A program made the translations under genes and the position numbers. A stretch of 64,000 nucleotides of DNA from Spirochaetota bacterium (GTDB lineage Bacteria; Spirochaetota; Brachyspiria; Brachyspirales; JACRPF01), in the NCBI GenBank assembly GCA_016214035.1, contig JACRPF010000014.1, positions 292,244-356,243 of the forward strand, in the 5' to 3' direction. Below are positions 18,501 through 43,227 of this stretch, piece by piece (the stretch's first letter is position 1; the number at the start of each line of letters is the position of its first letter). Below the pieces are notes generated by a model, which saw nothing but the letters and a program-made list of their open reading frames with translations, made no database searches and was not told the origin of the DNA.

Positions 18501-18508
18501 AACGTAGT

Positions 18509-18695: not shown

Positions 18696-18769
<74 letters not shown>

Positions 18770-19233: not shown

Positions 19234-19247
19234 CCAAGGCTAATTTT

Positions 19248-20531: not shown

Positions 20532-20547
20532 TGGCACGGAAATTGTA
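20532..20547 (+). promoter_or_regulatory. Sigma54 (-24/-12)-type promoter candidate upstream of the DUF1540 genes and the giant gene
   Basis: TGGCACggaaaTTGTa matches TGGCAC-N5-TTGC with one mismatch (GG-N10-GT). AGGAGG at 20561-20566 and the ATG at 20575 follow. Confidence 0.5.
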
Positions 20548-20574
20548 AATATATACATGAAGGAGGAACATCGT

Positions 20575-20880: not shown

Positions 20881-20938
20881 GTGTACCTATGCGGTTGCAG
20901 GGACCGTCGGGATGATGACCCACGTGAGGTAAGACCGT

Positions 20939-21274: not shown

Positions 21275-21295
21275 TACAACGAACGAGGCATAAAA

Positions 21296-24200: not shown

Positions 24201-27200
24201 CGAATGCATTCACGCTTGCGGTTGCAGCAGTCACGGTACAAAGCAATACATTTGAAGGTGTCGGCACGAACGGCATATTCATCACCGCAACGACGGCTGT
24301 CATCAACGACAATATCATCAAAGCCGCTGCGAGTAACGGAGTTTTTGTAGCCGCTAACGCAAATGTCCCGCTCATCTCCAATAATATCATCTGCAATGCG
24401 AGCAACGGAATTCAACTCAACGAAGGGACTACGGCGAAATTGATATGCAACACGATTAGCAATAATACGATAGGCGTCTACTATACGGACACATTGACGT
24501 TCATGCTGAACTGGAATAATTTTTCCAACAATTCGCTTCATTTCTCAAATGCGGCGGGGGCCACATTCACCGGCCAGACGAATTATTGGAGCAGCATCAC
24601 ATTGCCGATAGTGACAAGCAAAATCGGCGGCGTGACGAATACCAATGTCTATGTGCCCTACCGGCTTGGGTGGATGGGCACTTCACAGGCGGATATGCTA
24701 CCGCCCAACAGGCCGGTATTCACCAATGCAATAAGTACGAATTCCGGTGTGGCATTATGTTGGACGAATAACGGATCGGACATCGGTGGATACAGGATAT
24801 ACCGTTCATTCACCAACACCTGGACGAACTTCACAACATATTATGCTGATATTCCGACAACGGCAACCGCACTGTCATGGGTCGACACGAACGCAAGTTC
24901 GAACATGACGAATTACTATTTCGTGACCGCATATGACAGGAATACCAATACCGGACAGTGTATCAATGAAAGCTGGTTCAGCGCATCGTCCACAAACGGC
25001 ATTCGGCTCACACCGGCAATATGGGTGGAGGGCATTACGCCCACGGCGCTGTCGTGGATCAACAGTTCACCGATTACCTTCAGCGGAATGGCAAGCACAA
25101 CGAACGGCTATCTTGTCAGTGTCTATTTCAGCACCAACGCCACGAGCGGTTATGGTTTGGTAACAGGCACCACGAACTGGACGACGAATTTCGACGTGAG
25201 TGCATTCCCCGTAACAAATGTAATTTATCTCGTGGTGAGCAACAGCGCGGGCAAAGTATTGTCGAATTTCCAAACGAACTATATCGACCTGAGCGCACCG
25301 CTTACCGGGATAACAAATCTCATTGCCGGAACCATTGTCGGCGGGACAATCACCATACGCGGAACGAATATGGACGTGCAGTCGGGCATACAGGAAACGG
25401 TGATAACGATCACGAACACCAATGGGACCATGGTATTTATTGACGGGCTTCAGAACGGCAATGAGTTTTCGAACTATTGGGACACAACGGGTGTGGATGA
25501 TGGCGCATACTATGTCTATGCGGCTTCAATAAACGGAGCCGGCGGCGCCGCAAACTCCGCAAGCACAAGGCTTATCGTGAACAATATCGCGCCGCAGATC
25601 GCACAGACCAATATCGCTCAGTTCGCTACAAAAAGCGGCGTTTTGGCGTTCAAAGGTTATGCGATGAACTCGGCGGCAGTGCTTGATCCGCCGGCGGTAT
25701 ATTTCAAGACGAATGGCGGCACATTCGCGCTCGTGACGAACGGCACAATTTTCACAACGAATATAAACAGCACTACGCACCCTGACGGTACGAACGTATT
25801 CGAGTTTATTACGGTATCGTCGAATTTTAAGACGAATTATTTCTCTCAGACGAACATCATCGACAACAGTGTTCCTTATGCGGCGGTTACCAATATTATG
25901 AGCGGCAGCGTTATCAGCAACACCGTGACATATTATGGCACAAACTATGAAAATCTGTCCAGCATAATGGCTTTGATGCTGTATACCAACGGCGCGCTCT
26001 ATACCTGGACAAATACGACTCCCGCGTTCGAGTTGACATTGGACACACTTTTGATCCAAAATGGAATGCTCGCGCTCTCGTTAATCGTATCGAACGGCGT
26101 TGGGCTTACATATACTAATCATTTCACGAACTATATTACCAATGGCAGCGCTCCGTTCACGGGCATTACGAATCCGGCACCGCTTACGTGGATAACGAAT
26201 ACGCCGGTATCGGTTGAAGGGTATGCCAGCAACATTTTCGGTCAGATGTCGGCAATATTTTTCAGCACGAACGCGACAACGGCATATGCGCATACTGGCG
26301 GCACGACCACGAATTGGACAACGAACGTAGATGTAACCGGTTTTCCGGTTACAAACATATTCTATGTGGTTGCAAGCAACGAATTCTATTTCAATGCAAC
26401 GAACAGACAGACGAATTATGTGGACTTGAGCCCTCCGAATGCAAATATTACAAACCTCGAGATCGGCGCAATAATCGGGGGTTCCATGACGCTCCGGGGA
26501 ACGAACATCGATATACAGTCCGGCATTACGGCAACATGGATCATCATCTCAAATGAAATCGGGTTGACGACGAATCTCCCGGGGCTCCAGAACGGTATTG
26601 AATTCACTAATATATGGAATACCACAGGCACGGCTGACGGCGTGTATTATGCGAGTATACTATCGTCGAACGGGGCTGGTATTGAAACGGATACGGCAGG
26701 CAGAATGTTTATCGTCAATAATATCGCGCCAATAATAACGCAAACAGATATAGCGCAATTAACGACCAATACCGGGACGATAGCGTTTGCCGGATATGCA
26801 ACGAATATCGCATGGGCCTTAGACCCACCGGCAGTATATTTCAGGACAAACGGCGGCACGTTCGCGCTGGTGGCGAACAGTGTGTTTTTCACGACGAACA
26901 TAGACTCTTCGATACTTCCCGACGGTACGAATGCATTTGAATTCATGGCGGTATCGTCGAATTATAAAACGAATTACTTTTATCAAACCAACATCATCGA
27001 TAACAGCGCGCCATATGCGTGTATTACGAACATTACCGCCGGCCAGATAGTCGGCGGGATTATAACGATACGCGGAACGAATGCCGACCTGTTTTCGGGC
27101 ATATATAACACGAGGATTATCGTCACGAATGCCGGCGGGGCTGTAACGAATATCGCGGGGATGCAGAACGGCGTAGAGTTCACAAATAGCTTGAGCACGG

Positions 27201-30200
27201 CCGGCATCACCGACGGCAAATATTACGTTTATGTAACCGTTACAAACGGCGTCGGAATAGGAACAAACACCGCGAGCACGATGTTCGTTGTGAACAATCT
27301 CGCACCGATAATCGCGCAAACGAATATTGCGATGTTGACGACAAACCGGGGCGTACTATCATTTCAAGGTTACGCTACGAATATCGTATCGTTACTCGAT
27401 CCTCCGGCGATATACTTCAAAACGAACGGCGGCAATTTGGCACTGATGACAAACGGCACGGTATTCACGACGAACATCAATAGCGCTGTCCTTCCCGACG
27501 GCTCCAACTCGTTCGAATTCATCGCCGTGTCTTCAAACTACATGACCAATACGTTCTATCAGACAAATATTATCGATAATAGCGCGCCGTTTGCGGCGGT
27601 AACGAATTATGCCAACGGATGCACGATCAGCAATACCGTTGTCTATCGCGGCACGAATTACGAGAATGTATCCGGCGTTACCGCGACGATGCTGTACACG
27701 AACGGCGCGTTCTATGCATGGACGAATACAACACCGGCGTTTGAATTTTCAATCGACGCTTTGTTTTTCCGTAACGGCGTGCTTCCGATATCCATTATCG
27801 TATCGAACGAGGTAGGCCTTACGTATACAAATAATTTCACGAACTATGTGACCAACGGCAGCACACCGTTTGTGGGGATAACGAATCCATCGCCGGTAAC
27901 GTGGATAACGAACGATACAATTACCTTCGAGGGTTACGCAAGCAATACCATGGGCCAGATGACGGGGGTATTTTTCAGCACGAACGCGGTATCGGGATAT
28001 GCGCCTGCGGGAGGCACCACCACGAATTGGACGACGAACGTAACGGTTACCGGTTATCCGGTGACGAACGTTTTCTATGTCGTGGCAAGCAATGAATTTT
28101 ACTTCGCTACAACGAATAAACAGACAAACTATGTGGACCTCAGTGCGCCGGTTGCGGACATCACCAACATTACCGCCGGGCTGATTTTCGGCGGGACGCA
28201 TACGATACGCGGCACGAATGTTGATGCGCAATCGGATATTATGGTAACACGCATCATCGTCACAAATGCGGCGGGAGCGGTGACGAATATCACGGGGCTA
28301 CAAAACGGTGTTGAGTTTACAAATAACTGGGACACGACGGGTGTCGCTGACGGCAGGTTTTTTGCATACGTAACAGCAACTAACAACGCGGGTCTCGGCA
28401 CGAACACCACTAGCGTTCAGTTCATCGTGAACAATCTCGCACCGGTGATAGCTCAGACGAATATCGCGATGATGGCGACAAACCGCGGAATGATGTCGTT
28501 CATCGGTTATTCGACGAACATAGCAAACGTCATCGATCCGCCGGCGGTCTATATGGCGACGAACGGCGGCGCGTTTGCTCTCATTACCAACGGCACGGGA
28601 TTTACGACGAATGTCAACAGCACAACGCTTCCCGACGGGACGAACGCATTCGAGTTCATTGCGGTTTCATCGAACGGCAATACGAATCATTTCTATCAAA
28701 CGAATATCATCGACAACAGCCCCCCCTATGCGGCGGTGACGAACTATGTAAACGGCAGCGTGATAAGCAATTCGATAACATATCGCGGCACGAATTATGA
28801 AAACATCTCCGGCGTAACGGCGATGATGCTGTACACGAACGGTGCGTTCTTTGCATACACCAACACATCGCCTGGATTTGAGTTCACGATGAATACCAGC
28901 GTTTTCCTGAACGGCATGCTCCCGCTGACACTTGTCGCATCGAACGGCGTGGGGTTGACGTATACAAATTACATTACTAACTATATCACAAACGGCAGCG
29001 CTCCATTCGTCGCAATAACAAACCCGGCACCTATGACATGGATAACGAATAACACTATATCCATACAAGGGTATGCAAGCAATCTTTCCGGACAGATGAC
29101 TGGCATATTTTTCAGCACGAATGTGACGGGCGGTTACGCGACTGCGGGCGGGACCACTACGAACTGGACGACGAACGTGACCGTCACCGGATTCCCCATC
29201 ACGAACGTATGGTATGTCGTCGCGAGCAACGAATATTATTTTGTGACCACGAACTGCCGGACGAACTTTGTGGACCTCAGCGCACCTGCCGCCGGAATAA
29301 CCAATATCACTGCGGGACAGATCATCGGCGGGACATATGTCTTCCGCGGCACGAATATGGATGTACAGTCGGGCATTGCATCCACGAGAATGATAGTCAC
29401 CAATACCGGAGGCATTGTTACGAACATAACCGGGCTTCAGAACGGCGATGAGTTCACGAATAGCTGGAATACGACCGGTGTGGCGGACGGCACATACTTC
29501 ATATATCTGATATCCACAAATACTGCCGGCATTGGAACGAACACCGCAGGCATTGCATTCATCGTGAATAATCTCGCGCCGGTGATAACTCAGACAAACA
29601 TCGCGGAACTTACGACGAACACGGGCACTCTTGCCTTCATCGGTTATGCGACGAACATTTCAAGTATCGTCGATCCTCCGGCGGTGTACCTGGCGACGAA
29701 CGGCGGCGCGTTTGCGCTTGTGACCAACGGGACCGGCTTTACGACAAACTTCAACAGCACCTCCCTGCTTGACGGCACGAATGTATTTACATTTGCGGCG
29801 GTATCATCAAACAACAGGACGAACTTTTATTATCAGACGAACGTCATCGACAACAGTATCCCGTTCGGTGCGCCGACAAATAATTTCAACGGCGCCACGA
29901 TTGCATCAACCATTGTCATTACGGGCACGAATTACGAAAACATCTCGGCGATAACGGCAAACGTACTCTTCACCAACGGGGCATTTTTCGCGTGGACGAA
30001 TACGTCTCCGTGGGAATTTACATTCGATTCAAGGCTGTTTACGAACGGGTTGTTGAAACTTGCCCTTGTAGTTTCCAACGGCGTCAATCTCGTATATACC
30101 AACGTGTGGACGAATTATGTGTCGAATGTAATTGTGGCATCGAATACCAACACGGGGACTACCTATACAACGATTCAGAATGCGGTAACAGCCGCCGGCG

Positions 30201-33200
30201 ATGGTCATACCGTTGTCGTTTTTGCGGGCGCCTACACGGAGAATCTGCTGATATCCGGCAAAACGCGATTCTCGCTGATATCGCACGTGTTTCTCGCCAA
30301 TAGTAATCGTGACGGTGTCGTGCTTGACGGTAACAATAATGCCGAAACGATTAAAATAGATAGTTGTGTATCGAATCGGATTATCGGATTTACCTGTATA
30401 AACGGGAAGGAAACCGGCATTTATATAACGGGGACGTCTTCCTACAACAGAATTGATAATAACATCGTACGGAATAATGAAAGATGGGGGATAAATATCT
30501 TCAGCAAACTAGCGCGCTATAACCTAATAACAAGCAATGAGGTTTATAGCAATACCACCGCATCCGAAAATAATTGCGGCATTCTGATCAACGACGCCGA
30601 TTATTCCGAGCTTTACAAAAATAGTATTCATCATAATGGAAATTCCGGCATCCTTATTGCCGGCAATGCGACAAACAGCAGCATACACGAAAACATTATT
30701 AACTCGAATGTATCCTACGGTTTCCTGTGCAACACCGGCGCGGCAGGTTACACTGAAATTGTTACGAATACTATCGTCGGCAATATACAAGGCGTCGATA
30801 TACTTAATGCGGGTGTCGGAATGGTTGTCGCGAGCAATAATATTTGCCTTAACTCGACAGGCATCTTGATCAACACTCCTTTCAATGCAATTCGAAACAA
30901 CTTCATTTATTCAAACGGATGCGGCGTCGATATAGAAAGTACTTCGTCGGTAAGTAACGACGGTAATATGTTTTTTGCTAATGGGACCGGTATAAAACTG
31001 AATGGAGGCTCCGCGAATATCTTCCAGAACAATATTTTATCAAGCAATACGAATTGTGGCATCTATTGCCTTGGATCCGGAAATAACAATCTGATTCAAA
31101 GCAACCGGTTCGACACTACCGGATCGAACGCGATATCGATTATCGACAACGGCATGGACTTTACGTATGTGAGGAGTAATGTTATCTACGGCGCCATGTC
31201 CAACGGGATTTATGTCGTTATGGCCGATAACAGCCTCATTGAAAATAACATTATCTCGGCGACGGCACCCAATGGCGTTTTCATCGGCGCAACGGCGGAC
31301 AATACAACGATTTCCAACAACAGTATATACAGCGCCACAAGGGGCATCTCTTTGAGTGAAGGTAACGGAGCGAACGTTTCGTGTAACACGCTCAGCAACA
31401 ATACGATAGGCCTGTATTATGACGGTGCTTCGACGCTTTTGCTGAAGCTGAATAACCTGACCAATAATACGCTTCATTTTTCAAATGTCGCCGCGGCGAC
31501 AATAACTGCTCAAACGAATTACTGGGGGACCATAAGACTGCCTGTGATAATGAATTCAATCGGGGGTGTGACGGCTACCAATCAGTATGTTCCCTACCGC
31601 CTCGGGTGGGTCGGTACCGCACAGGCAGACATGACGCCCCCGAATCGTCCGGTATTCACCAATGCCTCGAATATTGGTGCCGGCGTGGTGCTTCATTGGA
31701 CAAATAATGGAACGGATATCGGAGGATATAGGATTTACCGCGCATATACGAATACTTGGACAAATATCACGACATTTCTGGCCGATATTCCGACAACCGC
31801 AACAGCCATGTGCTGGACGGATGCAAACGCAAGCACGAATATGACGAATTACTATTTCGTAACCGCCTATGATACAAACACCAATGCCGGGCAATACATC
31901 AATGAAAGCTGGTTCAGCGCGGGCTCAGCAAACGGCGTACGGCTTATTTCGACGGTAACAGTTTCGATAACGAATCCGGCAGCGATAACATGGATAACTA
32001 ACAATCCGGCGTATTTCGCAGGATTATCGAGCAATACGTTCGGCCAGATCACGGCGATATATTTCAGCACCAACGCTACGACGGGTTTTGCACTTGCCGG
32101 AGGAACGACGACGAACTGGACTACGAACGTGACGGTTACCGGTTTTCCGGTGACGAACGATTTCTATGTCGTTGCGAGCAATGAATATGGATTTGTTGCC
32201 ACGAACCATCAGACAAATTATGTGGATCTGAGCGCGCCGGATGTCGGTATTACAAACATAACGGCGGGACAAATTATAGGCGGAACATTCACCTTTCGCG
32301 GAACGAATATTGACACTCAATCGGACATATTGGCAACACGCATCATGGTGACAAACGTTGGCGGCAACGTCACCAACATCATTGGTTTGCAAAACAGCAT
32401 TGTGTTCACGAACAACTGGAATACGGCCGGTGTCTCTGACGGCATGTACTATGCGTATATTTCAGCCACGAACGGTGCGGGCATCGGGACGAATACCACG
32501 AGTGTTCAGTTTATCGTAAACAATGTGGCGCCGGTAGTCGCTCAGACAAACATTGTTCAATACGCTACCAATCGTGGCTTGATAGCGTTCATCGGATATG
32601 CCACGAATACCGCATCAGTACTCGATCCTCCGGCGGTATATTTTAAGACGAACGGAGGTGTGTTTGCGCTGGTTACAAACCATACCGTATTTACGACAAA
32701 TGTTGACACCACTACCCTGCCTGACGGAACCAATTCATTCGAAATAATAGCAGTATCGTCGAACTTCAAAACTAATGCATGCTATCAGACCAATATCATA
32801 GACAACAGCGCGCCGTTTGCGGCAGTTACCAATTACGTGAACGGCAGCATAATCAGCAATACGATAACATATCGCGGAACAAATCACGAGAATGTATCCG
32901 GCATAACGGCGATGATGCTGTACACGAACGGTGCGTTCTTTGCATACACCAACACATCGCCTGGATTTGAGTTCACGCTGAATACCGGAGTGTTCCTGAA
33001 CGGCATGCTCCCGCTGACACTTGTAGCGTCGAATGGCGTGGGGTTGGCGTATACAAATTACTTCACCAATTACATCACGAACGGCAGCGCTCCGTTCGTC
33101 GCAATAACTAATCCGGCACCTTTGACATGGATAACGAATAACACTATATCCATACAAGGGTATGCAAGCAATCTTTCCGGCCAGATCACGGCAATATATT

Positions 33201-35089
33201 TCAGCACCAACGCTACGATTGGCTTTGCTCCCGCCGGCGGCATAACGACGAACTGGACTACGAACGTGACGGTTACCGGCTTCCCGGTTACGAACGTCTT
33301 TTATGCTGCAGCAAGCAATGAATATTATTTTGTGACGACCAACTGCCAGACGAACTTTGTGGACCTCAGCGCGCCCGCTGTCAGCATCACAAACATTACC
33401 GCTGGGCAAATTATCGGCGGCATGTATACGATACGCGGCACGAATATGGATGCGCAAAGCGGAATAGCGGCAACAAGGATAATAATCACCAACGCCGGCG
33501 GTATAGTGACGAATATCGCAGCATTACAGATTGGCGATGAGTTCACGAATAACTGGAATACAACCGGTGTTTCTGACGGCAGATATTTCGCATATATGTC
33601 TTCCACGAACAGTGCGGGCATCTATACGAACACCGCAAGTACGACGTTCATCATCAATAACCTTGCGCCCATGATTGCACAGACGAATATCGCGCAGTAT
33701 GCCGCGAAAGCCGGCTCAATCATGTTCATCGGATATGCCACAAATGCCGCATCAGTACTCGACCCTCCGGCGGTATATTTCAAAACGAACGGTGGTACAT
33801 TTACACTGATAACGTACGGCACAATATTCACGACAAATGTCGACAGCACCACGCTGCCTGACGGCACTAATATATTCGAATTCATCGCGGTATCATCGAA
33901 CTACAGGACAAACCGCTTCTATCAGACAAACCTTATTGACAACAGCATCCCGTTCGTGTCTATAACCAATAGTGTAAACGGCGGCACGGTGAGCAACACC
34001 GTCACATACACCGGAACGAACTACGACAATGTCACCGGCATAACGGTAGTACTCTATACAAACGGCGCGTTCTATGCTGAAACAAACACATCGCCATCAT
34101 TTATATTTATGCTTGACACTACATTATTCACAAACGGCATGCTCGTGCTCAGCTTTGTTGCTACAAACTCCGCGGGACTTGTCTTCACGAATAACTTCAC
34201 GAACTATGTGTCGAATAATGTAACACCGTCGGCAGCGATTACCAATCTTGCGAACGGCTCATGGATAACCGCAACACCGGCAACTGTTTGCGGGACGGCA
34301 GCGGCGCCATTTGGAAGCATCACTGCCGTGTATATAAGCACCAATGCGTCAGCCGGATATGCGGCTGTTTCAGGTACGACAGCATGGACAACCAATCTCG
34401 ATGTGTCACTGTTCCCGGTAACAAACGCGGTATACACGGTTGCGGTAAGCAGCATGGGATATGCGGTGACGAATGTGCAGACGAATTATATCGATCTTAC
34501 ACCGCCCGCGGCGTGTATCACCAATATGATTTCAGGGATTCATGTATCCGATACGATATCCGTACGGGGAACTAATTATGATGCGGAATCATCCATTGCA
34601 TCCACACATTTCATTATCTCAAATACCGCGGGTCTCATCACCAATATATACACCGCTGTATCCGGAAATGACTGGAGTGTCTCGTGGAATACACGCTCAG
34701 TCTCCAACGGCGTATATGCGTTCATCGTCCGGTCAATAAATGGCGCCGGGGCCGTCTATTACGCTCCGGCGATAACGATAACGGTAACCAATCACACGTT
34801 CCATGACGACGGCCGGTTTGTTATCGCCCCGAACCCGTATCGTCCGAACTCAAAGAATCGTCGGCAGGGCGGCGGACTGCCCTATGTTATCGTAGCCGGG
34901 GTGCCGCCGTCGTTTACACTTGAGATCTATGCCGTGGACGGTCAGATGGTTGATAAAAAAACGGATGCGATGGGCGTTGAGGGAAGATATCAGTATGAAA
35001 TACCTTCGCGATTAGCCACCGGCATTTATCTTGTGCGGATAAAGAACGGTACTTCGGAAAAAACCACAAAGTTGACGGTGATACGATGA
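21296..35089 (+). CDS. Giant (4,597 aa) secreted beta-helix / FN3 / Ig-like repeat surface protein with T9SS-type (FlgD-Ig-like) C-terminal sorting domain
   Basis: Single uninterrupted ORF. Signal-peptide-like N-terminus (ALLPLVMFVAAVMSLHG/AVV). Three NosD/pectate-lyase-like parallel beta-helix modules, each followed by an FN3-like unit. 28 Ig-like ~95-aa domains. C-terminal IAPNPYRPN...GIYLVRIKNG...KLTVIR. Confidence 0.9.
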   Translation: MIRIGGNTGVTACNREAALLPLVMFVAAVMSLHGAVVSSNTNTGLTYTNIQSAVTAAAAGQTIVVFEGCYKENITVSAKTNVTLVSYAYMTNGSRTGVVLNGGLLNDTINLIHAVSNRVAGFTVTNGKDAGILIDGTSKWNEVENNILCLNNKWGAAVNSTTAVSNRIVSNEIFSNKTANDANGGIYIADADYTVIDRNLIHHNFNAGIVFINSAVGTLVTGNIIVSNASFGIICNNAAVGYTEVSQNTIGNNSRGFNILNGAAGWLIQSNNIAGNTTGVYLTENGNTIRGNNMISNTIGVDIESVSSTTNAGNLFLANGIAIYINGGSASSIANNIFTNNTNCGVYVLGTALNHAIESNLFTASGSSAIALTVDGVGFTSIRSNIIRGGMSNGIFITLADDNFIECNVISDMIQNGIYIGSGAVNTSISNNIICNTSNGFNLGEGSGVKILRNTLSNNTIGIYYFDNLTFPLTWNNFTNNALHFTNTTGAVICGQTNFWGSIRLPTVMNSIGGIIDTNQYVPYRLGFVGTAQPDITPPPVPSFTAGENRTNSIVLRWTNSAADIGGYRIYRAFSDTWTNFTTYYADIPTDLTTMCWTDTAVDTNFTNFYFVTAYDTNTNAGQFINESWFSESYYVSMPVWNTNTGVKYRTIQTAVDAAGSGHTIVVFDGIFKENVVLSNMNVTLAAYSFLTNGNRAGVIIDGSLTAAGIRVRNGLSNRVIGFSVTNGKDAGIMVDGASAYNSIENNVVYLNNKWGININGKTAFSNRVVSNEAYSNITAADADSGIQIKDADYTVLYRNYIHHNLNSGIVLTGAATNSIILENTIASNLSYGFYCNNSGAGYTEIISNTIVGNINGIYILAGTAGKLIVSNSIYLNTAGIYLGEDFNTIRHNTIYSNTYGIQINTATYNTNDGNIFFANATGIISANAVTGNIFRSNLFSNNLDNGMYLAGSGTGIKALNNSFITTGTNAFTLAVAAVTVQSNTFEGVGTNGIFITATTAVINDNIIKAAASNGVFVAANANVPLISNNIICNASNGIQLNEGTTAKLICNTISNNTIGVYYTDTLTFMLNWNNFSNNSLHFSNAAGATFTGQTNYWSSITLPIVTSKIGGVTNTNVYVPYRLGWMGTSQADMLPPNRPVFTNAISTNSGVALCWTNNGSDIGGYRIYRSFTNTWTNFTTYYADIPTTATALSWVDTNASSNMTNYYFVTAYDRNTNTGQCINESWFSASSTNGIRLTPAIWVEGITPTALSWINSSPITFSGMASTTNGYLVSVYFSTNATSGYGLVTGTTNWTTNFDVSAFPVTNVIYLVVSNSAGKVLSNFQTNYIDLSAPLTGITNLIAGTIVGGTITIRGTNMDVQSGIQETVITITNTNGTMVFIDGLQNGNEFSNYWDTTGVDDGAYYVYAASINGAGGAANSASTRLIVNNIAPQIAQTNIAQFATKSGVLAFKGYAMNSAAVLDPPAVYFKTNGGTFALVTNGTIFTTNINSTTHPDGTNVFEFITVSSNFKTNYFSQTNIIDNSVPYAAVTNIMSGSVISNTVTYYGTNYENLSSIMALMLYTNGALYTWTNTTPAFELTLDTLLIQNGMLALSLIVSNGVGLTYTNHFTNYITNGSAPFTGITNPAPLTWITNTPVSVEGYASNIFGQMSAIFFSTNATTAYAHTGGTTTNWTTNVDVTGFPVTNIFYVVASNEFYFNATNRQTNYVDLSPPNANITNLEIGAIIGGSMTLRGTNIDIQSGITATWIIISNEIGLTTNLPGLQNGIEFTNIWNTTGTADGVYYASILSSNGAGIETDTAGRMFIVNNIAPIITQTDIAQLTTNTGTIAFAGYATNIAWALDPPAVYFRTNGGTFALVANSVFFTTNIDSSILPDGTNAFEFMAVSSNYKTNYFYQTNIIDNSAPYACITNITAGQIVGGIITIRGTNADLFSGIYNTRIIVTNAGGAVTNIAGMQNGVEFTNSLSTAGITDGKYYVYVTVTNGVGIGTNTASTMFVVNNLAPIIAQTNIAMLTTNRGVLSFQGYATNIVSLLDPPAIYFKTNGGNLALMTNGTVFTTNINSAVLPDGSNSFEFIAVSSNYMTNTFYQTNIIDNSAPFAAVTNYANGCTISNTVVYRGTNYENVSGVTATMLYTNGAFYAWTNTTPAFEFSIDALFFRNGVLPISIIVSNEVGLTYTNNFTNYVTNGSTPFVGITNPSPVTWITNDTITFEGYASNTMGQMTGVFFSTNAVSGYAPAGGTTTNWTTNVTVTGYPVTNVFYVVASNEFYFATTNKQTNYVDLSAPVADITNITAGLIFGGTHTIRGTNVDAQSDIMVTRIIVTNAAGAVTNITGLQNGVEFTNNWDTTGVADGRFFAYVTATNNAGLGTNTTSVQFIVNNLAPVIAQTNIAMMATNRGMMSFIGYSTNIANVIDPPAVYMATNGGAFALITNGTGFTTNVNSTTLPDGTNAFEFIAVSSNGNTNHFYQTNIIDNSPPYAAVTNYVNGSVISNSITYRGTNYENISGVTAMMLYTNGAFFAYTNTSPGFEFTMNTSVFLNGMLPLTLVASNGVGLTYTNYITNYITNGSAPFVAITNPAPMTWITNNTISIQGYASNLSGQMTGIFFSTNVTGGYATAGGTTTNWTTNVTVTGFPITNVWYVVASNEYYFVTTNCRTNFVDLSAPAAGITNITAGQIIGGTYVFRGTNMDVQSGIASTRMIVTNTGGIVTNITGLQNGDEFTNSWNTTGVADGTYFIYLISTNTAGIGTNTAGIAFIVNNLAPVITQTNIAELTTNTGTLAFIGYATNISSIVDPPAVYLATNGGAFALVTNGTGFTTNFNSTSLLDGTNVFTFAAVSSNNRTNFYYQTNVIDNSIPFGAPTNNFNGATIASTIVITGTNYENISAITANVLFTNGAFFAWTNTSPWEFTFDSRLFTNGLLKLALVVSNGVNLVYTNVWTNYVSNVIVASNTNTGTTYTTIQNAVTAAGDGHTVVVFAGAYTENLLISGKTRFSLISHVFLANSNRDGVVLDGNNNAETIKIDSCVSNRIIGFTCINGKETGIYITGTSSYNRIDNNIVRNNERWGINIFSKLARYNLITSNEVYSNTTASENNCGILINDADYSELYKNSIHHNGNSGILIAGNATNSSIHENIINSNVSYGFLCNTGAAGYTEIVTNTIVGNIQGVDILNAGVGMVVASNNICLNSTGILINTPFNAIRNNFIYSNGCGVDIESTSSVSNDGNMFFANGTGIKLNGGSANIFQNNILSSNTNCGIYCLGSGNNNLIQSNRFDTTGSNAISIIDNGMDFTYVRSNVIYGAMSNGIYVVMADNSLIENNIISATAPNGVFIGATADNTTISNNSIYSATRGISLSEGNGANVSCNTLSNNTIGLYYDGASTLLLKLNNLTNNTLHFSNVAAATITAQTNYWGTIRLPVIMNSIGGVTATNQYVPYRLGWVGTAQADMTPPNRPVFTNASNIGAGVVLHWTNNGTDIGGYRIYRAYTNTWTNITTFLADIPTTATAMCWTDANASTNMTNYYFVTAYDTNTNAGQYINESWFSAGSANGVRLISTVTVSITNPAAITWITNNPAYFAGLSSNTFGQITAIYFSTNATTGFALAGGTTTNWTTNVTVTGFPVTNDFYVVASNEYGFVATNHQTNYVDLSAPDVGITNITAGQIIGGTFTFRGTNIDTQSDILATRIMVTNVGGNVTNIIGLQNSIVFTNNWNTAGVSDGMYYAYISATNGAGIGTNTTSVQFIVNNVAPVVAQTNIVQYATNRGLIAFIGYATNTASVLDPPAVYFKTNGGVFALVTNHTVFTTNVDTTTLPDGTNSFEIIAVSSNFKTNACYQTNIIDNSAPFAAVTNYVNGSIISNTITYRGTNHENVSGITAMMLYTNGAFFAYTNTSPGFEFTLNTGVFLNGMLPLTLVASNGVGLAYTNYFTNYITNGSAPFVAITNPAPLTWITNNTISIQGYASNLSGQITAIYFSTNATIGFAPAGGITTNWTTNVTVTGFPVTNVFYAAASNEYYFVTTNCQTNFVDLSAPAVSITNITAGQIIGGMYTIRGTNMDAQSGIAATRIIITNAGGIVTNIAALQIGDEFTNNWNTTGVSDGRYFAYMSSTNSAGIYTNTASTTFIINNLAPMIAQTNIAQYAAKAGSIMFIGYATNAASVLDPPAVYFKTNGGTFTLITYGTIFTTNVDSTTLPDGTNIFEFIAVSSNYRTNRFYQTNLIDNSIPFVSITNSVNGGTVSNTVTYTGTNYDNVTGITVVLYTNGAFYAETNTSPSFIFMLDTTLFTNGMLVLSFVATNSAGLVFTNNFTNYVSNNVTPSAAITNLANGSWITATPATVCGTAAAPFGSITAVYISTNASAGYAAVSGTTAWTTNLDVSLFPVTNAVYTVAVSSMGYAVTNVQTNYIDLTPPAACITNMISGIHVSDTISVRGTNYDAESSIASTHFIISNTAGLITNIYTAVSGNDWSVSWNTRSVSNGVYAFIVRSINGAGAVYYAPAITITVTNHTFHDDGRFVIAPNPYRPNSKNRRQGGGLPYVIVAGVPPSFTLEIYAVDGQMVDKKTDAMGVEGRYQYEIPSRLATGIYLVRIKNGTSEKTTKLTVIR
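21401..23212 (+). other. Beta-helix + FN3-like module 1 of the giant protein (approximate bounds)
   Basis: Opens with SSNTNTGLTYTNIQSAVTAAAAGQTIVVFEGCYKENITV, followed by ~22-aa beta-helix turns. The FN3-like part starts near 22895 (PDITPPPVPSFT...LRWTN...GGYRIYR...FYFVTAYDTNTN). Confidence 0.7.
23213..25020 (+). other. Beta-helix + FN3-like module 2 (approximate bounds)
   Basis: Opens with VWNTNTGVKYRTIQTAVDAAGSGHTIVVFDGIFKENVVL. The FN3-like part starts near 24689 (ADMLPPNRPVFT...LCWTN...GGYRIYR...YYFVTAYDRNTN). Paralogous to modules 1 and 3. Confidence 0.7.
25021..30127 (+). repeat. Ig-like domain array 1: 18 tandem ~284-nt (~95-aa) coding repeats of four subtypes (order ABCD-ABC-BCD-ABCD-ABCD)
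   Basis: Hand parsing of the translation. Subtype A: ITNPAP.TWITN...FFSTNAT...TNWTTNV.VTGFPVTN. B: ITNITAGQIIGG...RGTN.D.QSGI. C: IAQTNIA...GYATN...LDPPAVYFKTNGG. D: AAVTNY.NGS.ISN...YRGTNYEN. Domain linkers are (S/I)AP-x3-4-TN. Confidence 0.8.
30128..31950 (+). other. Beta-helix + FN3-like module 3, embedded in the middle of the Ig-like stalk (approximate bounds)
   Basis: Opens with VIVASNTNTGTTYTTIQNAVTAAGDGHTVVVFAGAYTENLLI. The FN3-like part starts near 31625 (ADMTPPNRPVFT...LHWTN...GGYRIYR...YYFVTAYDTNTN). Confidence 0.7.
31951..34790 (+). repeat. Ig-like domain array 2: 10 tandem ~95-aa coding repeats (ABCD-ABCD-AB)
   Basis: Same four subtypes as array 1. The first eight domains are a copy of 27878-30127 at a constant +4,089-nt offset. 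Confidence 0.8.
34810..35086 (+). other. C-terminal sorting domain (T9SS type-A / FlgD-Ig-like CTD)
   Basis: GRFVIAPNPYRPNSKN...FTLEIYAVDGQMVDKK...GRYQYEIPSRLATGIYLVRIKNGTSEKTTKLTVIR. Shows the PNP-x-x-P start, an alternating beta pattern, G-(I/V)-Y-(L/F)-V and a terminal K-x-x-V-I-R, as in Por_Secre_tail / FlgD_ig C-terminal domains. Confidence 0.6.
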
Positions 35090-35129
35090 AACAGATACGT
35101 ACCATATTTCACGAAAAGGAAGGTGCCGC

Positions 35130-35345
35130 ATGCAGATAAAACAGTGTGAATGCTGCAAACATTTCACCATGCGACTGTACAACGCGGATTCATATAACGA
35201 CAGGTACAGATATGTCTGCAGCTCATGTCTGCTTGAGCTGGTGAAAGCGTTCAGTTTCCCGATACACGCTGATGAGATAAAGCATAAAACCGCGGAAGAG
35301 TCGCACACGGACGGCAGCGACATTGCTCCGCATATTGCAAAGTGA
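35130..35345 (+). CDS. Small CxxC...CxxC zinc-ribbon protein (paralog of 52682-52981)
   Basis: 71 aa. QCECCKHFTMRLYNADSYNDRYRYVCSSCLLELV has Cys at 6, 9, 30 and 33. AGGAAGGTG RBS. Starts 40 nt after the giant gene's stop. Confidence 0.65.
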   Translation: MQIKQCECCKHFTMRLYNADSYNDRYRYVCSSCLLELVKAFSFPIHADEIKHKTAEESHTDGSDIAPHIAK

Positions 35346-35359
35346 AAAGGAGGCGGCGT

Positions 35360-35917
35360 ATGAATACAGCAGAACGGGTCTCACACGGACTATCGGCAGG
35401 ATTGAAACCGCATATCGCGATGGTCCTCATCGCAGGCATACTTATTACCGCGCACTCAAGCTCGGGCATATCATCCGACCTGGCGGGATATACCGAGCAG
35501 TATTTCCATACCGCCGTCATGTATCCGTTCAACAATGCCGATGTGCCGGCGCTCTTCGCGCGAAAATCGCTCGAGGGATGGGCGGAAATTGACGTGCTAA
35601 CGGCAATTGAAAAACGTTCGTTCTATATGCTCCCGAAACTAATCGAACCCTGTGATGCTGATGCCGCCGGCGCATTCAGGAAACGGGAATACCGGTCGCC
35701 GCGAAGGACGGTCATAGTAAATCGCGACAGCGGCATATGCATCGTCATCAGCTACAAACTGCATGACGGCGATGAAGTGCCGGCGGTAAAGCGCACGTAC
35801 CACTTCCGAAGTATCGTCGATACGGTTACCTATGAATACAAAAACGGGTCTGACGTATCAGCGGCATCATCCGTCTTCGGTACGCTTCATTTCCATGCGG
35901 ATGAGATGGTGCAATGA
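35360..35917 (+). CDS. Hypothetical exported/membrane-anchored protein
   Basis: The track ORF uses GTG at 35342. AGGAGG (35348-35353) 6 nt before the ATG at 35360 favours the shorter form. Has an N-terminal hydrophobic segment IAMVLIAGILITA and no recognisable domain. ATGA overlap with the next gene. Confidence 0.6.
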   Translation: MNTAERVSHGLSAGLKPHIAMVLIAGILITAHSSSGISSDLAGYTEQYFHTAVMYPFNNADVPALFARKSLEGWAEIDVLTAIEKRSFYMLPKLIEPCDADAAGAFRKREYRSPRRTVIVNRDSGICIVISYKLHDGDEVPAVKRTYHFRSIVDTVTYEYKNGSDVSAASSVFGTLHFHADEMVQ

Positions 35918-38028
35918 GACGTAACGCCAGCATAATCGCCGGCGTTTTCTGGATGGTAATGTGCATACCGTCAGTGTCGGGGATAGCGCAGGAGCCGCCC
36001 CGGGCCGGGACATTCGTGGCGGGCGTCTACGCTGATGCTGCAGCACCCGCCCGCAAATTCAGCCGGGAACTGGCGGCCGCTGCGACCCGTGAGCTCCCAT
36101 CCGCATTGTATATCACCAACATCACTGCAGACGATGACACCGGCGTTGACATTCGCGCCGACGTTCAGCGCCTCACCTATGAAAAGCTCGCTCAATGCGA
36201 CGGCATTACACTGTACGATGTCGCATTCGTCTGTGTTCATGCCTCAGAACACGCGCTCACTGTTCCGGCGGATTTGACAAACGGCCCGGTAATTATCTAC
36301 GGCGGCCCCGTAAGCATGAGCGCTATCCTTACGATTGAATCGCATATACAAGCGCCGCTCGCCGTTATAACCGCTTCATCGTATACCGACGCGCTCGCAT
36401 GTCTCGCATCGAATACCGGCGCATGCATCATTGCCGAAAGCATTGACGCATTCGCGTCTTCATTTTCCGGCGGCACGAGTATACATTTCAGCCTGCTCAA
36501 AGATGTGCTTCCGGCGGAACATGCCGGATGGTTGATGCCAAAACACTTCGGATACACTGTTCAGCTTGAGAACGCAATTGAAAAGCTGAAACGCTCGGGC
36601 GATTTCGACGCGATCTGGTACTCATCTTTCGGTATTGCGCGCGAGCAATATGCCGCGATGCTAGAAAAAAACGACCCGCGCACACACTATTTCCGGCGAT
36701 GCCTCGATATGGCTTTTGCAGGCGAGTTTGAAAATGCGCTCGCGGAACTCGCGAAAGCAGAGTCGGCTGATAACGGCGGCGGGCAGACAAAAGAACTGCG
36801 CATCCTTATAGACAGCTATCTGCAAAAAATTGCAACGAATACCGATGCCGCATCGGCGGTTATTGTTGAAGAAATGCCGAAGACATTTGAACGACCCTCC
36901 GAAGTGGAAAAACTCAAAACGAAAAGCCCCGACGAAGCGGCTCAGTATGAGGGGGAACGGTATTTCAAGGTGGGCGTCTATAAGTTCAACCGCAAGGAGT
37001 ACCCTGAGGCAGCCGATTGTTTCCGCAAGGCCAATGCGCTGTCATATAAGCCGGAACAATCACGCGAATACCTGGTGAAGGCGGAAAAAGCGTTCACCGA
37101 GAACAAACGCGCACAGGATGAAGATCGGATGAAACGGTTTAATGATATTTTTGAAAAGGCCATCAGATACTATACGAAATCGAGTCTGCAGGAAGCGCTC
37201 AATGCCATCACCGAATGCCTGAACCTGTTCCCCGATAACGAGATGGCGAAAAAATATTACATCCTGATATCCGACAACATCACGCTTGAGGGTGAACGCA
37301 CCATCGACATGTCTTCGCCGTATTACACCTATTTCAAAAACCGCATGGCTGCCGCCGACGACCATATGCTCCGGAATACATATGCTGAAGCGCGGGAAAT
37401 CTTTGAGGAAGTACTGGCCCTATTCCCGAACAATGAGCGTGCCCGCGAAAGTCTCATTACCTGCCTGCTTAAGCTCGATCCGGAAAAGTTGAAAACGTTT
37501 ACCCGTGACTATATCGACCGCGGAAATCGAGCGCTGGCGGCGGGCAACCTGCGTGACGCAAACATGCTGTTCTCATCGGTAAAACGAATAGCGCCGGATC
37601 ATCCGCAGATTGACGATCTCATCGCGCGCACCAAACCGAAACGCAGGGAGTTCACGGCGGAAACGCCACCCGAAGGGTTCTCCTGTGAAAAATATATGCA
37701 GGAGGCATCCGACTGCTATACGCGCGGAAATCTAGCCACGGCACTTGCGCTCTACCGAACCATTATCCGCTATCGGCCTGACGACTACAAGGCGCTTATG
37801 AATGCAACGAGAATTGAAAATATCATCGCCTCATCGAAAGGCGAACGCAGTGCCGACATCGCCGGTCCGTCCCGTCGGGCAGCAGACGCGCTTTATCTGA
37901 AAGGTCAGTTCTATTACCGGATACGGGAATATCGGTCAGCGATTGCGCTCTGGGAGGAGGCATATCGCGTTGATCCCACGTATACCAAAGCCTACATCAA
38001 CGCCGAACGTGCGAAGAAGATGCAATGA
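35914..38028 (+). CDS. Exported TPR-repeat protein with an N-terminal domain of unknown function
   Basis: Signal peptide IIAGVFWMVMCIPSVSGIAQ. The C-terminal ~380 aa form multiple TPR-like repeats (YFKVGVYKFNRKEYPEAADCFRKA..., AEAREIFEEVLALFPNNERA..., YLKGQFYYRIREYRSAIALWEEAYRVDP). Confidence 0.7.
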   Translation: MRRNASIIAGVFWMVMCIPSVSGIAQEPPRAGTFVAGVYADAAAPARKFSRELAAAATRELPSALYITNITADDDTGVDIRADVQRLTYEKLAQCDGITLYDVAFVCVHASEHALTVPADLTNGPVIIYGGPVSMSAILTIESHIQAPLAVITASSYTDALACLASNTGACIIAESIDAFASSFSGGTSIHFSLLKDVLPAEHAGWLMPKHFGYTVQLENAIEKLKRSGDFDAIWYSSFGIAREQYAAMLEKNDPRTHYFRRCLDMAFAGEFENALAELAKAESADNGGGQTKELRILIDSYLQKIATNTDAASAVIVEEMPKTFERPSEVEKLKTKSPDEAAQYEGERYFKVGVYKFNRKEYPEAADCFRKANALSYKPEQSREYLVKAEKAFTENKRAQDEDRMKRFNDIFEKAIRYYTKSSLQEALNAITECLNLFPDNEMAKKYYILISDNITLEGERTIDMSSPYYTYFKNRMAAADDHMLRNTYAEAREIFEEVLALFPNNERARESLITCLLKLDPEKLKTFTRDYIDRGNRALAAGNLRDANMLFSSVKRIAPDHPQIDDLIARTKPKRREFTAETPPEGFSCEKYMQEASDCYTRGNLATALALYRTIIRYRPDDYKALMNATRIENIIASSKGERSADIAGPSRRAADALYLKGQFYYRIREYRSAIALWEEAYRVDPTYTKAYINAERAKKMQ

Positions 38029-39365
38029 TGTTGAAAAGGATGATTATTATGATAGCCGTATGCGCCGCATGCAGAGCGATGGACCCGGCCGCAGGGTCTG
38101 CCGGAATGCGTTTCCTCAAGCTGCCGGCAGATGCCGCCGTCATCGGCATGGGAGATACGTCCGCGGCCCGGCACGGAAAAAGCATGGATTTTCTGTCAAA
38201 TCCCGCATCGCTCGGTTTTCAAAACGATATGGCCGCGGCCGTCACCTATTTCAGACTTGCCGGAATAGACACCGGCATCAATCATTGCGCGGCTGCGTTC
38301 ACCATGCCGCTCGGAATACTGGGCTCAATCGGCGTCGGCACCGTACTCCCGTTATACGGCACATCAGAAAGTCTTGAACTCGCTGATGACGGGTCTATTG
38401 TAACAACAGGTTCGACGTTCGACTTTGACGCTATGCTCACCGCTTCCTACGGAATTTCAATCGCTGATATCCTGAGCGCCGGCGGTGCGGTAAAAATGGC
38501 GGTTGAATCAATCGGCGGCGTCACCATGACGGGCTTATCGTTCGATATCGGCGTCATGGCATCGTTATTTTCAAATGCGCTTATCATCGGCGCTTCGGCA
38601 AAGAACCTCGGCCCGTCGGTATTCACGGAAAACGGCGCTGCGATGCCCTTCATTTCCCGGCTCGGGGTGCGCTGGCGCATATTCGATATCGGCGATAATG
38701 CAATCACCGTGGCGGCGGATATTACAAAATCACTTGATGGAGAATTCGGCTGCAACACCGGCATGGAATATTCACTCGCACATTTCATCTATCTCCGTGC
38801 GGGATATCAGTACCAGGAAACAGGCATCATGAGCGCGGGCGCGGGAATACATATAGCGAAAAACATCGATATTGATGTGGGCGGCATATTCCTCTCCGCA
38901 GCGTTCAACCGTCTCGGCGTGACCGTGCAGTACCGGTTCGCTGAAAGCAGCATCGCCACAGCACCACCGCCTCCGGCAGAAGTGACGGCTGCTGCTGCAT
39001 CGAATACCTTCCCGGCGGCTGACAACGCCGTTCCACCCGCAGCGCCGGCGGCTGAAACAAACGCAGTCACCATGATTGACACGCCACCGTCTGCACCCAC
39101 GAATACGCCCGCAGCGCCGGAAACCGCATCATCCATGAACACGAACGCCATGGATACGCCTTCGACGAATATGCTGCGTGCAATTGAGGCATGGAGTCTT
39201 GAGAAAATAATCACCGAAGCGCGTGAAGCGATACGGCTGAACGACAGCCGCTATGCGCGTGCGTTGATCACGGAAGGGCTGACACGGTCACCGGGCAACA
39301 GTGAACTTATCAGACTGTTAAAAATCATGCTCGATCAAAGGCGGGAAAGTAATGAAAAACAGTAA
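38025..39365 (+). CDS. PorV/PorQ-family-like outer-membrane beta-barrel protein with Pro/Ala/Thr-rich linker and helical C-terminal extension
   Basis: Signal peptide, then GSAGMRFLKLPADAAVIGMGDTSAA...FLSNPASLGF, the N-terminal hallmark I associate with PorV/PorQ (and Treponema UPF0164) proteins. Alternating beta-strand pattern ends in RLGVTVQYRF. An extra ~130-aa tail follows (PPPPAEVTAAAAS...TPAAPETASS, then a TPR-like helix pair). Confidence 0.6.
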   Translation: MMLKRMIIMIAVCAACRAMDPAAGSAGMRFLKLPADAAVIGMGDTSAARHGKSMDFLSNPASLGFQNDMAAAVTYFRLAGIDTGINHCAAAFTMPLGILGSIGVGTVLPLYGTSESLELADDGSIVTTGSTFDFDAMLTASYGISIADILSAGGAVKMAVESIGGVTMTGLSFDIGVMASLFSNALIIGASAKNLGPSVFTENGAAMPFISRLGVRWRIFDIGDNAITVAADITKSLDGEFGCNTGMEYSLAHFIYLRAGYQYQETGIMSAGAGIHIAKNIDIDVGGIFLSAAFNRLGVTVQYRFAESSIATAPPPPAEVTAAAASNTFPAADNAVPPAAPAAETNAVTMIDTPPSAPTNTPAAPETASSMNTNAMDTPSTNMLRAIEAWSLEKIITEAREAIRLNDSRYARALITEGLTRSPGNSELIRLLKIMLDQRRESNEKQ

Positions 39366-39392
39366 CACGCCTTATGCTGTGCGGAGGCATTT

Positions 39393-43206: not shown

Positions 43207-43227
43207 GCTGACACAGCGGGCCTCTGT

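Follow-up and report, generated by a model that had tools for sequence, protein, structure and literature searches.

The window analysed here, a stretch of 64,000 nucleotides from the genome of an uncultured Spirochaetota bacterium, raises the question of whether a 2.25-kb repeat found at an offset of 4,089 nt inside one giant surface-protein gene is a discrete and recent duplication, and whether it could work as a size switch, as had been proposed from a reading of the sequence alone. Our analysis indicates that this apparent duplication is probably explained by old paralogues of a four-domain (ABCD) super-repeat, aligned in register, together with one short patch of gene conversion. In the collections searched the gene is carried by one genome and one sample. 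The main features of the gene are the following.

21296 to 35089, forward strand: giant surface-protein ORF of 4,597 aa, which contains both copies and the patch.
27872 to 30127, forward strand: copy 1, units U4 (A3 B4 C4 D3) and U5 (A4 B5 C5 D4), which close array 1 with eight domains.
30128 to 31957, forward strand: head module 3, a predicted right-handed parallel beta-helix (Pfam Beta_helix/NosD) and an FN3-like domain.
31958 to 34231, forward strand: copy 2, units U6 (A5 B6 C6 D5) and U7 (A6 B7 C7 D6), which open array 2 with eight domains.
34889 to 35080, forward strand: predicted type A sorting domain of the T9SS (TIGR04183, 31.0 bits; cutoff 23).

The product of this ORF is identical to the NCBI protein MBI4978344.1, whose record is titled 'MAG: right-handed parallel beta-helix repeat-containing protein [Spirochaetes bacterium]'. 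With H for a beta-helix head, F for an FN3-like domain and A to D for four types of Ig-like domain, the protein reads: signal-like N-terminus, HF HF ABCD ABC BCD ABCD ABCD HF ABCD ABCD AB, CTD. It has three beta-helix and FN3 heads and 28 Ig-like domains, the latter arranged as a 379-aa ABCD super-repeat. The heads score above the Pfam cutoff (Beta_helix 165 bits, NosD 122 bits) and are predicted to adopt the right-handed parallel beta-helix of the pectate-lyase-like fold; in the AF2 model of head 3 the pLDDT is > 90 across ~320 beta-helix residues. The FN3-like domain of head 3 scored 23.4 bits with fn3_4, under the cutoff of 27.1, and its model confidence is low. Foldseek matched the head to glycan-active beta-helices and tailspikes with low TM-scores, only 0.2-0.34, so that no enzyme family can be assigned. 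A single ABCD unit was modelled by AF2 as four all-beta Ig-like domains, and the A to D domains had no Pfam match at E <= 0.1.

The C-terminal TIGR04183 domain suggests a cargo of the type A sorting class of the T9SS. The Pfam Por_Secre_tail match at the same end is weak (19 bits against 27), and in the relative P0004 TIGR04183 scores 24.7 bits. At the N-terminus a hydrophobic stretch, LLPLVMFVAAVMSLHGA, is seen at residues 19-35 and may be signal-like. Among the scanned neighbours within the window no T9SS machinery genes (SprA, PorV and others) were recognised, and the genes downstream of the giant ORF encode TPR, unknown, SpoIIE/HAMP and STAS proteins. An identity as RTX/T1SS giant adhesin of the LapA, MpIBP or SiiE type had been weighed because the Foldseek matches are extender repeats of such adhesins, and was dropped, there being no Pfam RTX domain and no T1SS neighbours. 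The protein is of a poorly known but recognisable kind, and the 4,089-nt repeat is an ordinary feature of it.

The block at 27878-30127 is indeed repeated at 31967-34216, as first described, with 1629 of 2250 positions identical (72.4%, ungapped) at the offset of 4,089 nt; in the 150-nt windows flanking the block the identity at this offset falls to 0.19-0.39. The original start at 27878 lies two codons inside A3. Self-comparison by blastn recovered the pair as one HSP, 27877-29985 against 31966-34071, with 75.0% identity over 2,119 columns. The eight domains A3 B4 C4 D3 A4 B5 C5 D4 face A5 B6 C6 D5 A6 B7 C7 D6, and the third beta-helix/FN3 module sits between the two copies. The offset had been called constant, which is true over most of the block but not for ~50 nt in D4/D6, shifted by 3; here two compensating 3-nt indels occur, and 4,089 is restored at 30106-30127. 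The two perfect tracts were exact to the nucleotide (28815-28888 equal to 32904-32977, 74 nt; 29034-29091 equal to 33123-33180, 58 nt). No other exact repeat in the gene is as long, and those next in length have 35, 32, 25 and 25 nt; the first of them is:

33245 to 33279, forward strand: 35-nt exact repeat, equal to 32108-32142 (A5/A6, offset 1,137).

The pair belongs to a hierarchy of repeats. Comparison of the gene with itself gave 18 in-frame HSPs, the best being the offset-4,089 pair (75.0% over 2.1 kb). At offset 1,137 there were matches of 1.9 kb (70.8% identity) and 1.0 kb (72.4%), at offset 5,226 identity was 69.8%, and at offset 6,936, which aligns head 2 and array 1 with head 3 and array 2, it was 67% over 2.6 kb. 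TRF is blind to the 1,137-nt period, as the longest period that it handles is 500.

The top rank of this pair among the self-matches is what one would expect if eight domains had been duplicated round head 3 in a discrete and fairly recent event, conversion then keeping the copies alike and crossover between them acting as an in-frame head switch. We consider this unlikely, and the claim of a discrete or recent 2.25-kb duplication was not sustained. In six of the eight in-register pairs, the marginal B5-B7 included, the two domains lie no nearer to each other than to partners out of register: reciprocal nearest neighbours are clear for D3-D5 and A4-A6, marginal for B5-B7, and not found for the other five pairs. 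When nucleotide identity is compared domain by domain, D3-D5 (88%) and A4-A6 (83%) are the only pairs that stand out. A3-A5, at 75%, equals A2-A3 and A5-A6; B4-B6, at 70%, equals B4-B7; C4-C6 (70%) is lower than C4-C5 (73%), and D4-D6 (58%) is lower than D4-D2 (61%). By protein identity B5-B7 is the closest B pair (74% against 64-69%), perhaps the worn margin of an earlier in-register exchange that covered more sequence.

The silent sites point the same way. Outside the patch they are saturated (pS 0.65-0.67, dS about 1.5-1.6), with pS of 0.65-0.74 in the individual domains from A3/A5 to C5/C7, so the low synonymous divergence across the whole block that a recent duplication would leave was not seen. 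An old duplication of the eight domains would simply not be detectable, since saturated silent sites would hide it. The ratio dN/dS is about 0.11-0.13 in patch and flanks alike. When codons were redrawn from the protein alignment and the codon usage, a nucleotide identity of 0.647 was expected in the flanks against 0.702 observed, and out-of-register pairs exceed their expectation by the same small amount as the in-register flanks. Protein conservation therefore accounts for ~65 of the 70% identity of the flanks, that is for almost all of it. Quartet sites outside the patch hardly favour the in-register pairing over the tandem one at first and second codon positions (18 in-register, 15 tandem, 2 cross), and the counts are 4/7/2 for amino acids and 14/14/10 for third positions in the same order; the 18 and 15 against 2 cross show a history that is reticulate and not star-like.

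Between these flanks lies the one segment of the block where the copies are much closer.

28815 to 29091, forward strand: putatively converted patch, copy-1 side, spanning the D3|A4 unit junction (29008/29009).
32904 to 33180, forward strand: putatively converted patch, copy-2 side, at the D5|A6 junction.

The two sides are identical at 259 of 277 positions (93.5%), and the identity is graded (100%, 97%, 86%): a 98-nt stretch at 86% lies amid exact tracts of 74 nt (28815-28888 and 32904-32977), 32 nt (28904-28935 and 32993-33024) and 58 nt (29034-29091 and 33123-33180). Third-position identity is 0.859 within 28815-29091 and 0.481 outside, and in the codon window 28775-29098 pS falls to 0.25 and dS to 0.31. 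The longest exact run is of 74 nt, whereas the longest runs in 20,000 shuffles averaged 21.8 and never went beyond 48; for identical third positions the longest run is 30, and 100,000 shuffles gave at most 27 (p < 1e-5). Across all same-type domain pairs of the gene the median third-position identity is 0.43, and only D3/D5 (0.73) and A4/A6 (0.63) are far above it. The tree signal changes as well, quartet sites inside the patch being 15 in-register, 1 tandem and 0 cross. Such a bounded drop in dS, with over-long runs of identity and a tree signal unlike that of the flanks, is what is expected of gene conversion, and at the level of sequence the patch appears to be the sole clear converted segment in the gene. 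The patchy identity of the block had been attributed to recent gene conversion; this reading fits the ~280-320 nt round D3|A4 and D5|A6 and fails elsewhere.

Two other explanations of the patch were weighed. Nucleotide-level selection, acting on RNA structure, on a promoter inside the gene or on an overlapping antisense gene, could have kept it identical, and a 240-aa antisense ORF at 32735-33457 on the minus strand does overlap the copy-2 side. Nevertheless the junctions D1|A2 and D2|A3 are just 70-75% identical to the patch junction, which means that junction sequence is not generally constrained. None of the antisense ORFs matched Pfam, and copy 1 lacks a counterpart of the ORF; RNA folding gave a z-score of -0.40, no Rfam family was matched in the gene, and 10 promoter-like sites were counted where 12.2 are expected, with 11 terminator-like sites where the expectation is 7.6 +/- 2.8. 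On these grounds the RNA structure, promoter, terminator and antisense-gene readings were rejected, and selection on the nucleotides is largely refuted and extremely improbable.

The perfect tracts, or the whole patch, could also have been made by assembly or polishing that mixed the reads of two similar units, the true copies being as diverged there as elsewhere. The source record is a MAG contig, and in each of the relatives P0004 and P0127 a contig end interrupts the array. The independent Logan assembly (k=31) of run SRR12113407 reproduces 18734-28844 and 33250-44587 with 100% identity, which shows the sequence there to be real, and leaves 28845-33249 uncovered. The first of its contigs stops inside the 74-nt tract and contig L001 begins at 33250, where 30 nt of the 35-nt exact repeat are left, which bears out the predicted hazard for short-read assembly. 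The first stop, however, comes after exactly 30 nt (k-1) of the 74-nt tract, implying that in the raw reads one 30-mer was met from two upstream contexts and that the start of the tract is duplicated whatever the MAG assembler did. An ordinary read is longer than any of the tracts, neither the reading frame nor the order of the domains is broken, the graded identity forms no clean block, and similar tracts occur in P0127, a different assembly of a different genome. We regard an artefact as very unlikely.

Old paralogues with one converted patch thus remain our explanation, and it may be put as follows. The offset-4,089 pair would be two (ABCD)x2 stretches of the 379-aa super-repeat in register, this super-repeat forming the stalk of a three-headed surface protein. 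Its units would be old paralogues in which purifying selection (dN/dS about 0.1) holds ~70% identity while silent sites have been randomised; hence the pair is neither special nor recent, and in-phase shifts by multiples of a unit come out nearly equal. Across the D|A junction ~280-320 nt would later have been copied non-reciprocally between U4/U5 and U6/U7. The hierarchy of repeats, the saturated flanks, the local fall of dS and the altered tree signal are shown by the data. Gene conversion as the mechanism is our inference, and the mosaic of exact tracts with an 86% stretch suggests more than one short event.

There remains the switch. The offset is divisible by 3 within a single ORF, so that a crossover would indeed be in frame, as had been argued, and the minimum for RecA-type recombination is roughly 25-30 nt in E. 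coli, less than either perfect tract (74 and 58 nt). In principle these would be long enough for rare RecA-type crossovers, and the resulting alleles would stay in frame and lose or gain 1,363 aa. How many heads and array units are present also varies among relatives, indicating that modules are gained and lost over evolutionary time. Sequence divergence, however, suppresses crossovers through mismatch-repair anti-recombination, and with ~30% divergence in the flanks a strong suppression is expected; the saturation of the flanks shows that exchange between the copies has been negligible. No allele of another length was found, the organism being present in only one sample of the collections searched. 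The long near-identical DNA repeats that define a contingency locus are not seen here, given 72.4% identity overall and exact repeats of at least 31 nt limited in this gene to those of 74, 58, 35 and 32 nt. Nothing in the one sample and one genome points to a recombinational switch of size or function. It is highly improbable that natural populations of this groundwater-type spirochaete are polymorphic for the number of heads in their giant T9SS-type surface protein; were they so, conversion would keep the ~280-nt D|A junction similar and rare crossovers in the 74- or 58-nt tracts would yield alleles of 3,234 aa, having lost head 3 and eight domains, or of 5,960 aa, having gained a fourth head.

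The named relatives of the protein are all from Spirochaetota MAGs. For the lineage itself, PriA is only 64% identical to that of the nearest known relative. An exhaustive profile search for homologues gave 938 matches, and word-index searches, limited in sensitivity, found only 3 proteins with head 3 and 2 with one ABCD unit. No match was obtained with an ABCD alignment, with the downstream TPR gene as synteny anchor in the genome contigs searched, or by plasmid megablast; a metagenome scan recovered only the C-terminus of the Hainich relative, and these searches yielded no orthologous full-length locus. A literature search on SRR12113407 returned nothing. In P0127 (L010, GCA_038043445.1) the ABCD units are about 1,134 nt long and 79-80% identical, and different pairs of units share exact tracts of 77, 73, 61 and 59 nt. 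In the three stretches tested by shuffling, the longest exact runs, of 77, 73 and 59 nt, beat every shuffle.

Some cautions follow for giant repeat proteins. A 'duplication' at ~70% DNA identity can be mere protein-level conservation of old paralogues, and silent-site divergence and out-of-register controls are needed before such repeats are termed recent or recombinogenic. Exact tracts of 35-74 nt suffice to fragment k=31 assemblies and, as related genes in other MAGs are also cut inside the array, this Spirochaetota family is systematically truncated in public data. The three beta-helix heads and the Ig-like domains unknown to Pfam may interest those who work on spirochaete surfaces, and the T9SS-type sorting domain lies here outside its usual phyla.

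The best Foldseek matches of an ABCD unit are extender repeats of giant adhesins (6xi1, 4p99, 6xi3, 2yn5 and GhpA, 9flw). Those of MpIBP region II (4p99), of the Aeromonas and Marinobacter RTX adhesin tetra-repeats (6xi1, 6xi3) and of SiiE (2yn5) have E values of 1e-13 to 1e-9 with a sequence identity of only 15-18%. As in these adhesins, arrays of ~95-aa beta-sandwiches would, on the models, form a stalk for terminal or internal ligand-binding modules. The adhesins are, however, T1SS substrates with RTX, whereas the spirochaete protein has a predicted T9SS type A CTD and no RTX. MpIBP moreover is built from a near-identical single-domain repeat, unlike the four-domain super-repeat with saturated silent sites described here.

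In alpha C/Rib of group B streptococci, Bap/Esp and the fungal Als/Flo proteins, recombination of in-frame repeats alters protein length, in the FLO genes reportedly by ectopic recombination. Their repeats are near-identical over hundreds of nucleotides and length polymorphism is observed, in contrast to the 72% identity, the longest exact tract of 74 nt and the lack of any known polymorphism here. As for organisation, an analogy may be drawn with the super-repeats of titin and nebulin, where a domain resembles the same-position domain elsewhere more than its neighbours; the likeness would lie in the higher-order periodicity and in blocks alignable at many in-phase offsets, these eukaryotic muscle proteins being evolutionarily unrelated to ours.

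SprB of Flavobacterium johnsoniae and GhpA of Aureispira (9flw) likewise have several thousand residues, Ig-like repeats and a T9SS CTD, and the GhpA fragment gave the highest query TM-score among the structural matches (TMq 0.49). SprB has a type B CTD and SprB repeats, neither of which was detected in the 4,597-aa protein. Both of these proteins come from Bacteroidota, whereas the giant protein described here comes from Spirochaetota and carries three beta-helix heads.

The repeat lies inside a single giant gene, with these features:

21296-35089, + strand: giant open reading frame (4,597 aa), containing both repeat copies and both perfect tracts
25016-30127 and 31958-34804, + strand: arrays of A-D domains, from segmentation and HMMs
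34889-35080, + strand: T9SS type A sorting domain TIGR04183 (NCBIfam)

The product is NCBI record MBI4978344.1, annotated as 'MAG: right-handed parallel beta-helix repeat-containing protein [Spirochaetes bacterium]' and located on a 399,539-nt contig. The PriA of the window is 100% identical to that of the same MAG, the next closest being from a Hainich groundwater MAG (64% identity), while Brachyspira PriA reaches about 54%. Pfam identified Beta_helix (165 bits) and NosD (122 bits) at three places in the protein, with an fn3_4 match below threshold and a weak Por_Secre_tail match. Motif-guided segmentation, checked with HMMs made from the segments, gave the architecture HF HF / ABCD ABC BCD ABCD ABCD / HF / ABCD ABCD AB / CTD. 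H stands for a beta-helix head (about 500 aa), F for an FN3-like domain (about 100 aa), and A-D for four domain types that differ from one another and span about 94 aa each. Pfam gave no match to any of A-D, even with hits up to E <= 0.1 allowed. Two ABCD units (U4 and U5) close array 1 before head 3 and two (U6 and U7) open array 2 after it; the block of eight domains noticed by the sequence-only reading is therefore two super-repeat units on either side of head 3.

The match itself is genuine. Positions 27878-30127 and 31967-34216 share 1629 of 2250 bases (72.4%, ungapped) at an offset of 4,089 nt, and in every flanking 150-nt window identity at that offset falls to 0.19-0.39. The two tracts reported as perfect are indeed free of mismatches (28815-28888 and 32904-32977, 74 nt; 29034-29091 and 33123-33180, 58 nt), and they head the ranking of exact repeats in the gene (74, 58, 35, 32, 25 and 25 nt). 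When the match/mismatch string was shuffled, the longest run averaged 21.8 nt and never exceeded 48, against the observed 74. The offset, claimed to be constant, holds across the block except for about 50 nt in D4/D6, which two compensating 3-nt indels put off register before it is restored at the common ...TATGTGTCGAAT end.

Whether this pair represents a discrete, recent 2.25-kb duplication is another matter. In a self-blastn of the gene, which gave 18 HSPs, all in frame, the copies form a single HSP that ranks best (75.0% over 2,119 columns, 2.1 kb), with others close behind: offset 1,137 nt (70.8%, 1.9 kb, and a second HSP of 72.4%, 1.0 kb), offset 5,226 nt (69.8%, 1.9 kb) and offset 6,936 nt, which pairs head 2 plus array 1 with head 3 plus array 2 (67%, 2.6 kb). 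In codon-aligned identity matrices, one per domain type, just two in-register pairs rise above the rest, D3-D5 (88% nt) and A4-A6 (83%). The remaining six of eight are not closer than out-of-register pairs: A3-A5 (75%) equals A2-A3 and A5-A6, B4-B6 (70%) equals B4-B7, C4-C6 (70%) is below C4-C5 (73%) and D4-D6 (58%) below D4-D2 (61%), with B5-B7 at 71% and C5-C7 at 68%.

On either side of the high-identity patch at the D3|A4 junction (27872-28774 and 29099-29863), Nei-Gojobori estimates gave pS of 0.65-0.67, an effectively saturated dS of about 1.5-1.6 and dN/dS of about 0.11. Drawing the codons anew and independently according to codon usage in this gene, with both protein sequences fixed, predicted a flank identity of 0.647 versus 0.702 observed, and out-of-register pairs show an equally small excess. 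Quartet sites of U4-U7 outside the patch split between in-register, tandem and cross groupings as 18, 15 and 2 at codon positions 1+2, 4, 7 and 2 for amino acids, and 14, 14 and 10 at third positions, a signal that reads as reticulate and does not prefer a block duplication. The domain pairs, saturated dS, redraw control and quartet split speak against a discrete, recent duplication.

The gene conversion proposed from the patchy identity holds locally, in the patch, but not in the saturated flanks. Across 28815-29091 (277 nt) there are 18 differences between the copies, or 93.5% identity; at third positions identity reaches 0.859 versus 0.481 elsewhere, and over a codon window extended somewhat to 28775-29098 dS is 0.31. 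None of 100,000 permutations produced a stretch of 30 matching third positions, the longest observed, and quartet sites in the patch columns favour the in-register grouping (15/1/0). When domains of one type were compared pairwise throughout the gene, the three heads included, third-position identity had a median of 0.43, and only D3/D5 (0.73) and A4/A6 (0.63) lay clearly outside the range of the others. The patch is a mosaic:

28815-28935: 4 mismatches
28936-29033: 14 mismatches
29034-29091: 0 mismatches
near 29231-29283: small additional island beyond the patch

From this mosaic we infer that more than one short conversion event would have produced it. Other sources of the identity were rejected: RNA structure gave no signal (z = -0.40), promoter-like and terminator-like sites occur at chance level, and antisense ORFs lack Pfam matches and are not kept between copies. 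Rfam had no match within the gene.

The warning that the region is an assembly hazard is borne out. Logan k=31 contigs of run SRR12113407, an independent assembly covering 18734-28844 and 33250-44587 at 100% identity and not the interior 28845-33249, end inside exact repeats: the first stops exactly 30 nt (k-1) inside the 74-nt tract and the second starts exactly 30 nt ahead of the end of the 35-nt repeat (33245-33279). De Bruijn graph contigs break in this way at true repeats; in the raw reads, two different upstream contexts must therefore lead into the tract, which argues against polishing as the source of the tracts.

A crossover in either tract would, from the coordinates, stay in frame and give a product of 3,234 or 5,960 aa, as the suggested size and function switch demands. 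The minimal processing segment for recombination in E. coli is about 25-30 nt, shorter than 74 nt, and flank divergence of about 30% strongly suppresses exchange. The saturated flanks indicate that the copies are not homogenised, and the sole sample carrying the organism yielded no variant. The switch is thus possible in principle but unsupported.

Array 1 hints at an older rearrangement. It is irregular at 26732-27589 (C2 B3 C3, junction near 27014-27040), through loss of a D-A pair or else duplication of a B-C pair (67.6% in blastn at offset 576). B3 starts with YACITNITAG, resembling a D-type start joined to a B-type body, which suggests old in-frame recombination at a common domain-boundary motif.

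An exhaustive profile search found 938 proteins at E < 1e-3, 35 of them even at E < 1e-30, the named members all coming from Spirochaetota MAGs. They carry A-D domains in many different orders, with beta-helix, DUF2341 or PKD modules, and the domains look like an undescribed family of spirochaete surface proteins. Relative P0127 reads D (ABCD)x4, PKD region, CTD; in P0128 (4,726 aa) a short array comes after each of the three heads; P0136 reads HF HF BCDAD. These varied architectures point to gain and loss of heads and stalk units over evolutionary time. The P0127 units (about 1,134 nt, 79-80% identical, third-position identity 0.57-0.68) are closer to one another than those of the giant gene, and different pairs of them have exact tracts of 77, 73, 61 and 59 nt in common. 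In three shuffle-tested stretches the longest runs (77, 73 and 59 nt) exceeded all shuffles, so that short-tract exchange seems a general habit of the family. The P0127 and P0004 genes both end at contig ends inside the ABCD array (12-6329 of L010, GCA_038043445.1, JBBTBY010000021.1; 2-1222 of L003; both from other Spirochaetota MAGs), and public copies of the family are probably truncated systematically. No orthologous full-length locus was recovered among contigs and metagenomes. The predicted T9SS type A sorting domain (34889-35080) was noted alongside P0004, P0127, P0128, P0130, P0132 and P0133, TIGR04183 scoring above cutoff in the giant protein (31 bits versus 23) and one relative; both carry it though the named family is entirely from Spirochaetota MAGs.

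Around the gene we identified:

571-7868: ABC ATPase for polysaccharide export (TagH-like), with three large proteins that contain glycosyltransferase domains (642, 670 and 593 aa)
18427-18770: four tRNA genes (Pro-TGG, Arg-TCT, His-GTG, Arg-TCG), about 2.5 kb upstream
about 18934-20330, upstream: STAS protein and GAF-GGDEF diguanylate cyclase
39393-43206, downstream: TPR protein, two family-less proteins (446 and 636 aa), HAMP-SpoIIE phosphatase and second STAS protein

The signalling genes on both sides jointly look like a partner-switching module. The first region, with GC of 0.40-0.46 against about 0.50-0.54 in the remaining window, may be a surface-glycan island. Logan contig L002 starts at 18734, within the last tRNA gene.

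In the AlphaFold model of one ABCD unit (mean pLDDT 73) four Ig-like domains are predicted, each of them all-beta, and the best PDB matches of this model (6xi1, 4p99, 6xi3, SiiE 2yn5 and GhpA 9flw) are extender repeats of giant adhesins. Head 3 is confidently predicted as a right-handed beta-helix, its FN3 part with low confidence; the modelled likeness to glycan-active beta-helices and phage tailspikes is at fold level only (TM-scores 0.2-0.34). The protein belongs to a known kind, that of giant, repetitive surface proteins built on a domain super-repeat and showing concerted evolution locally.
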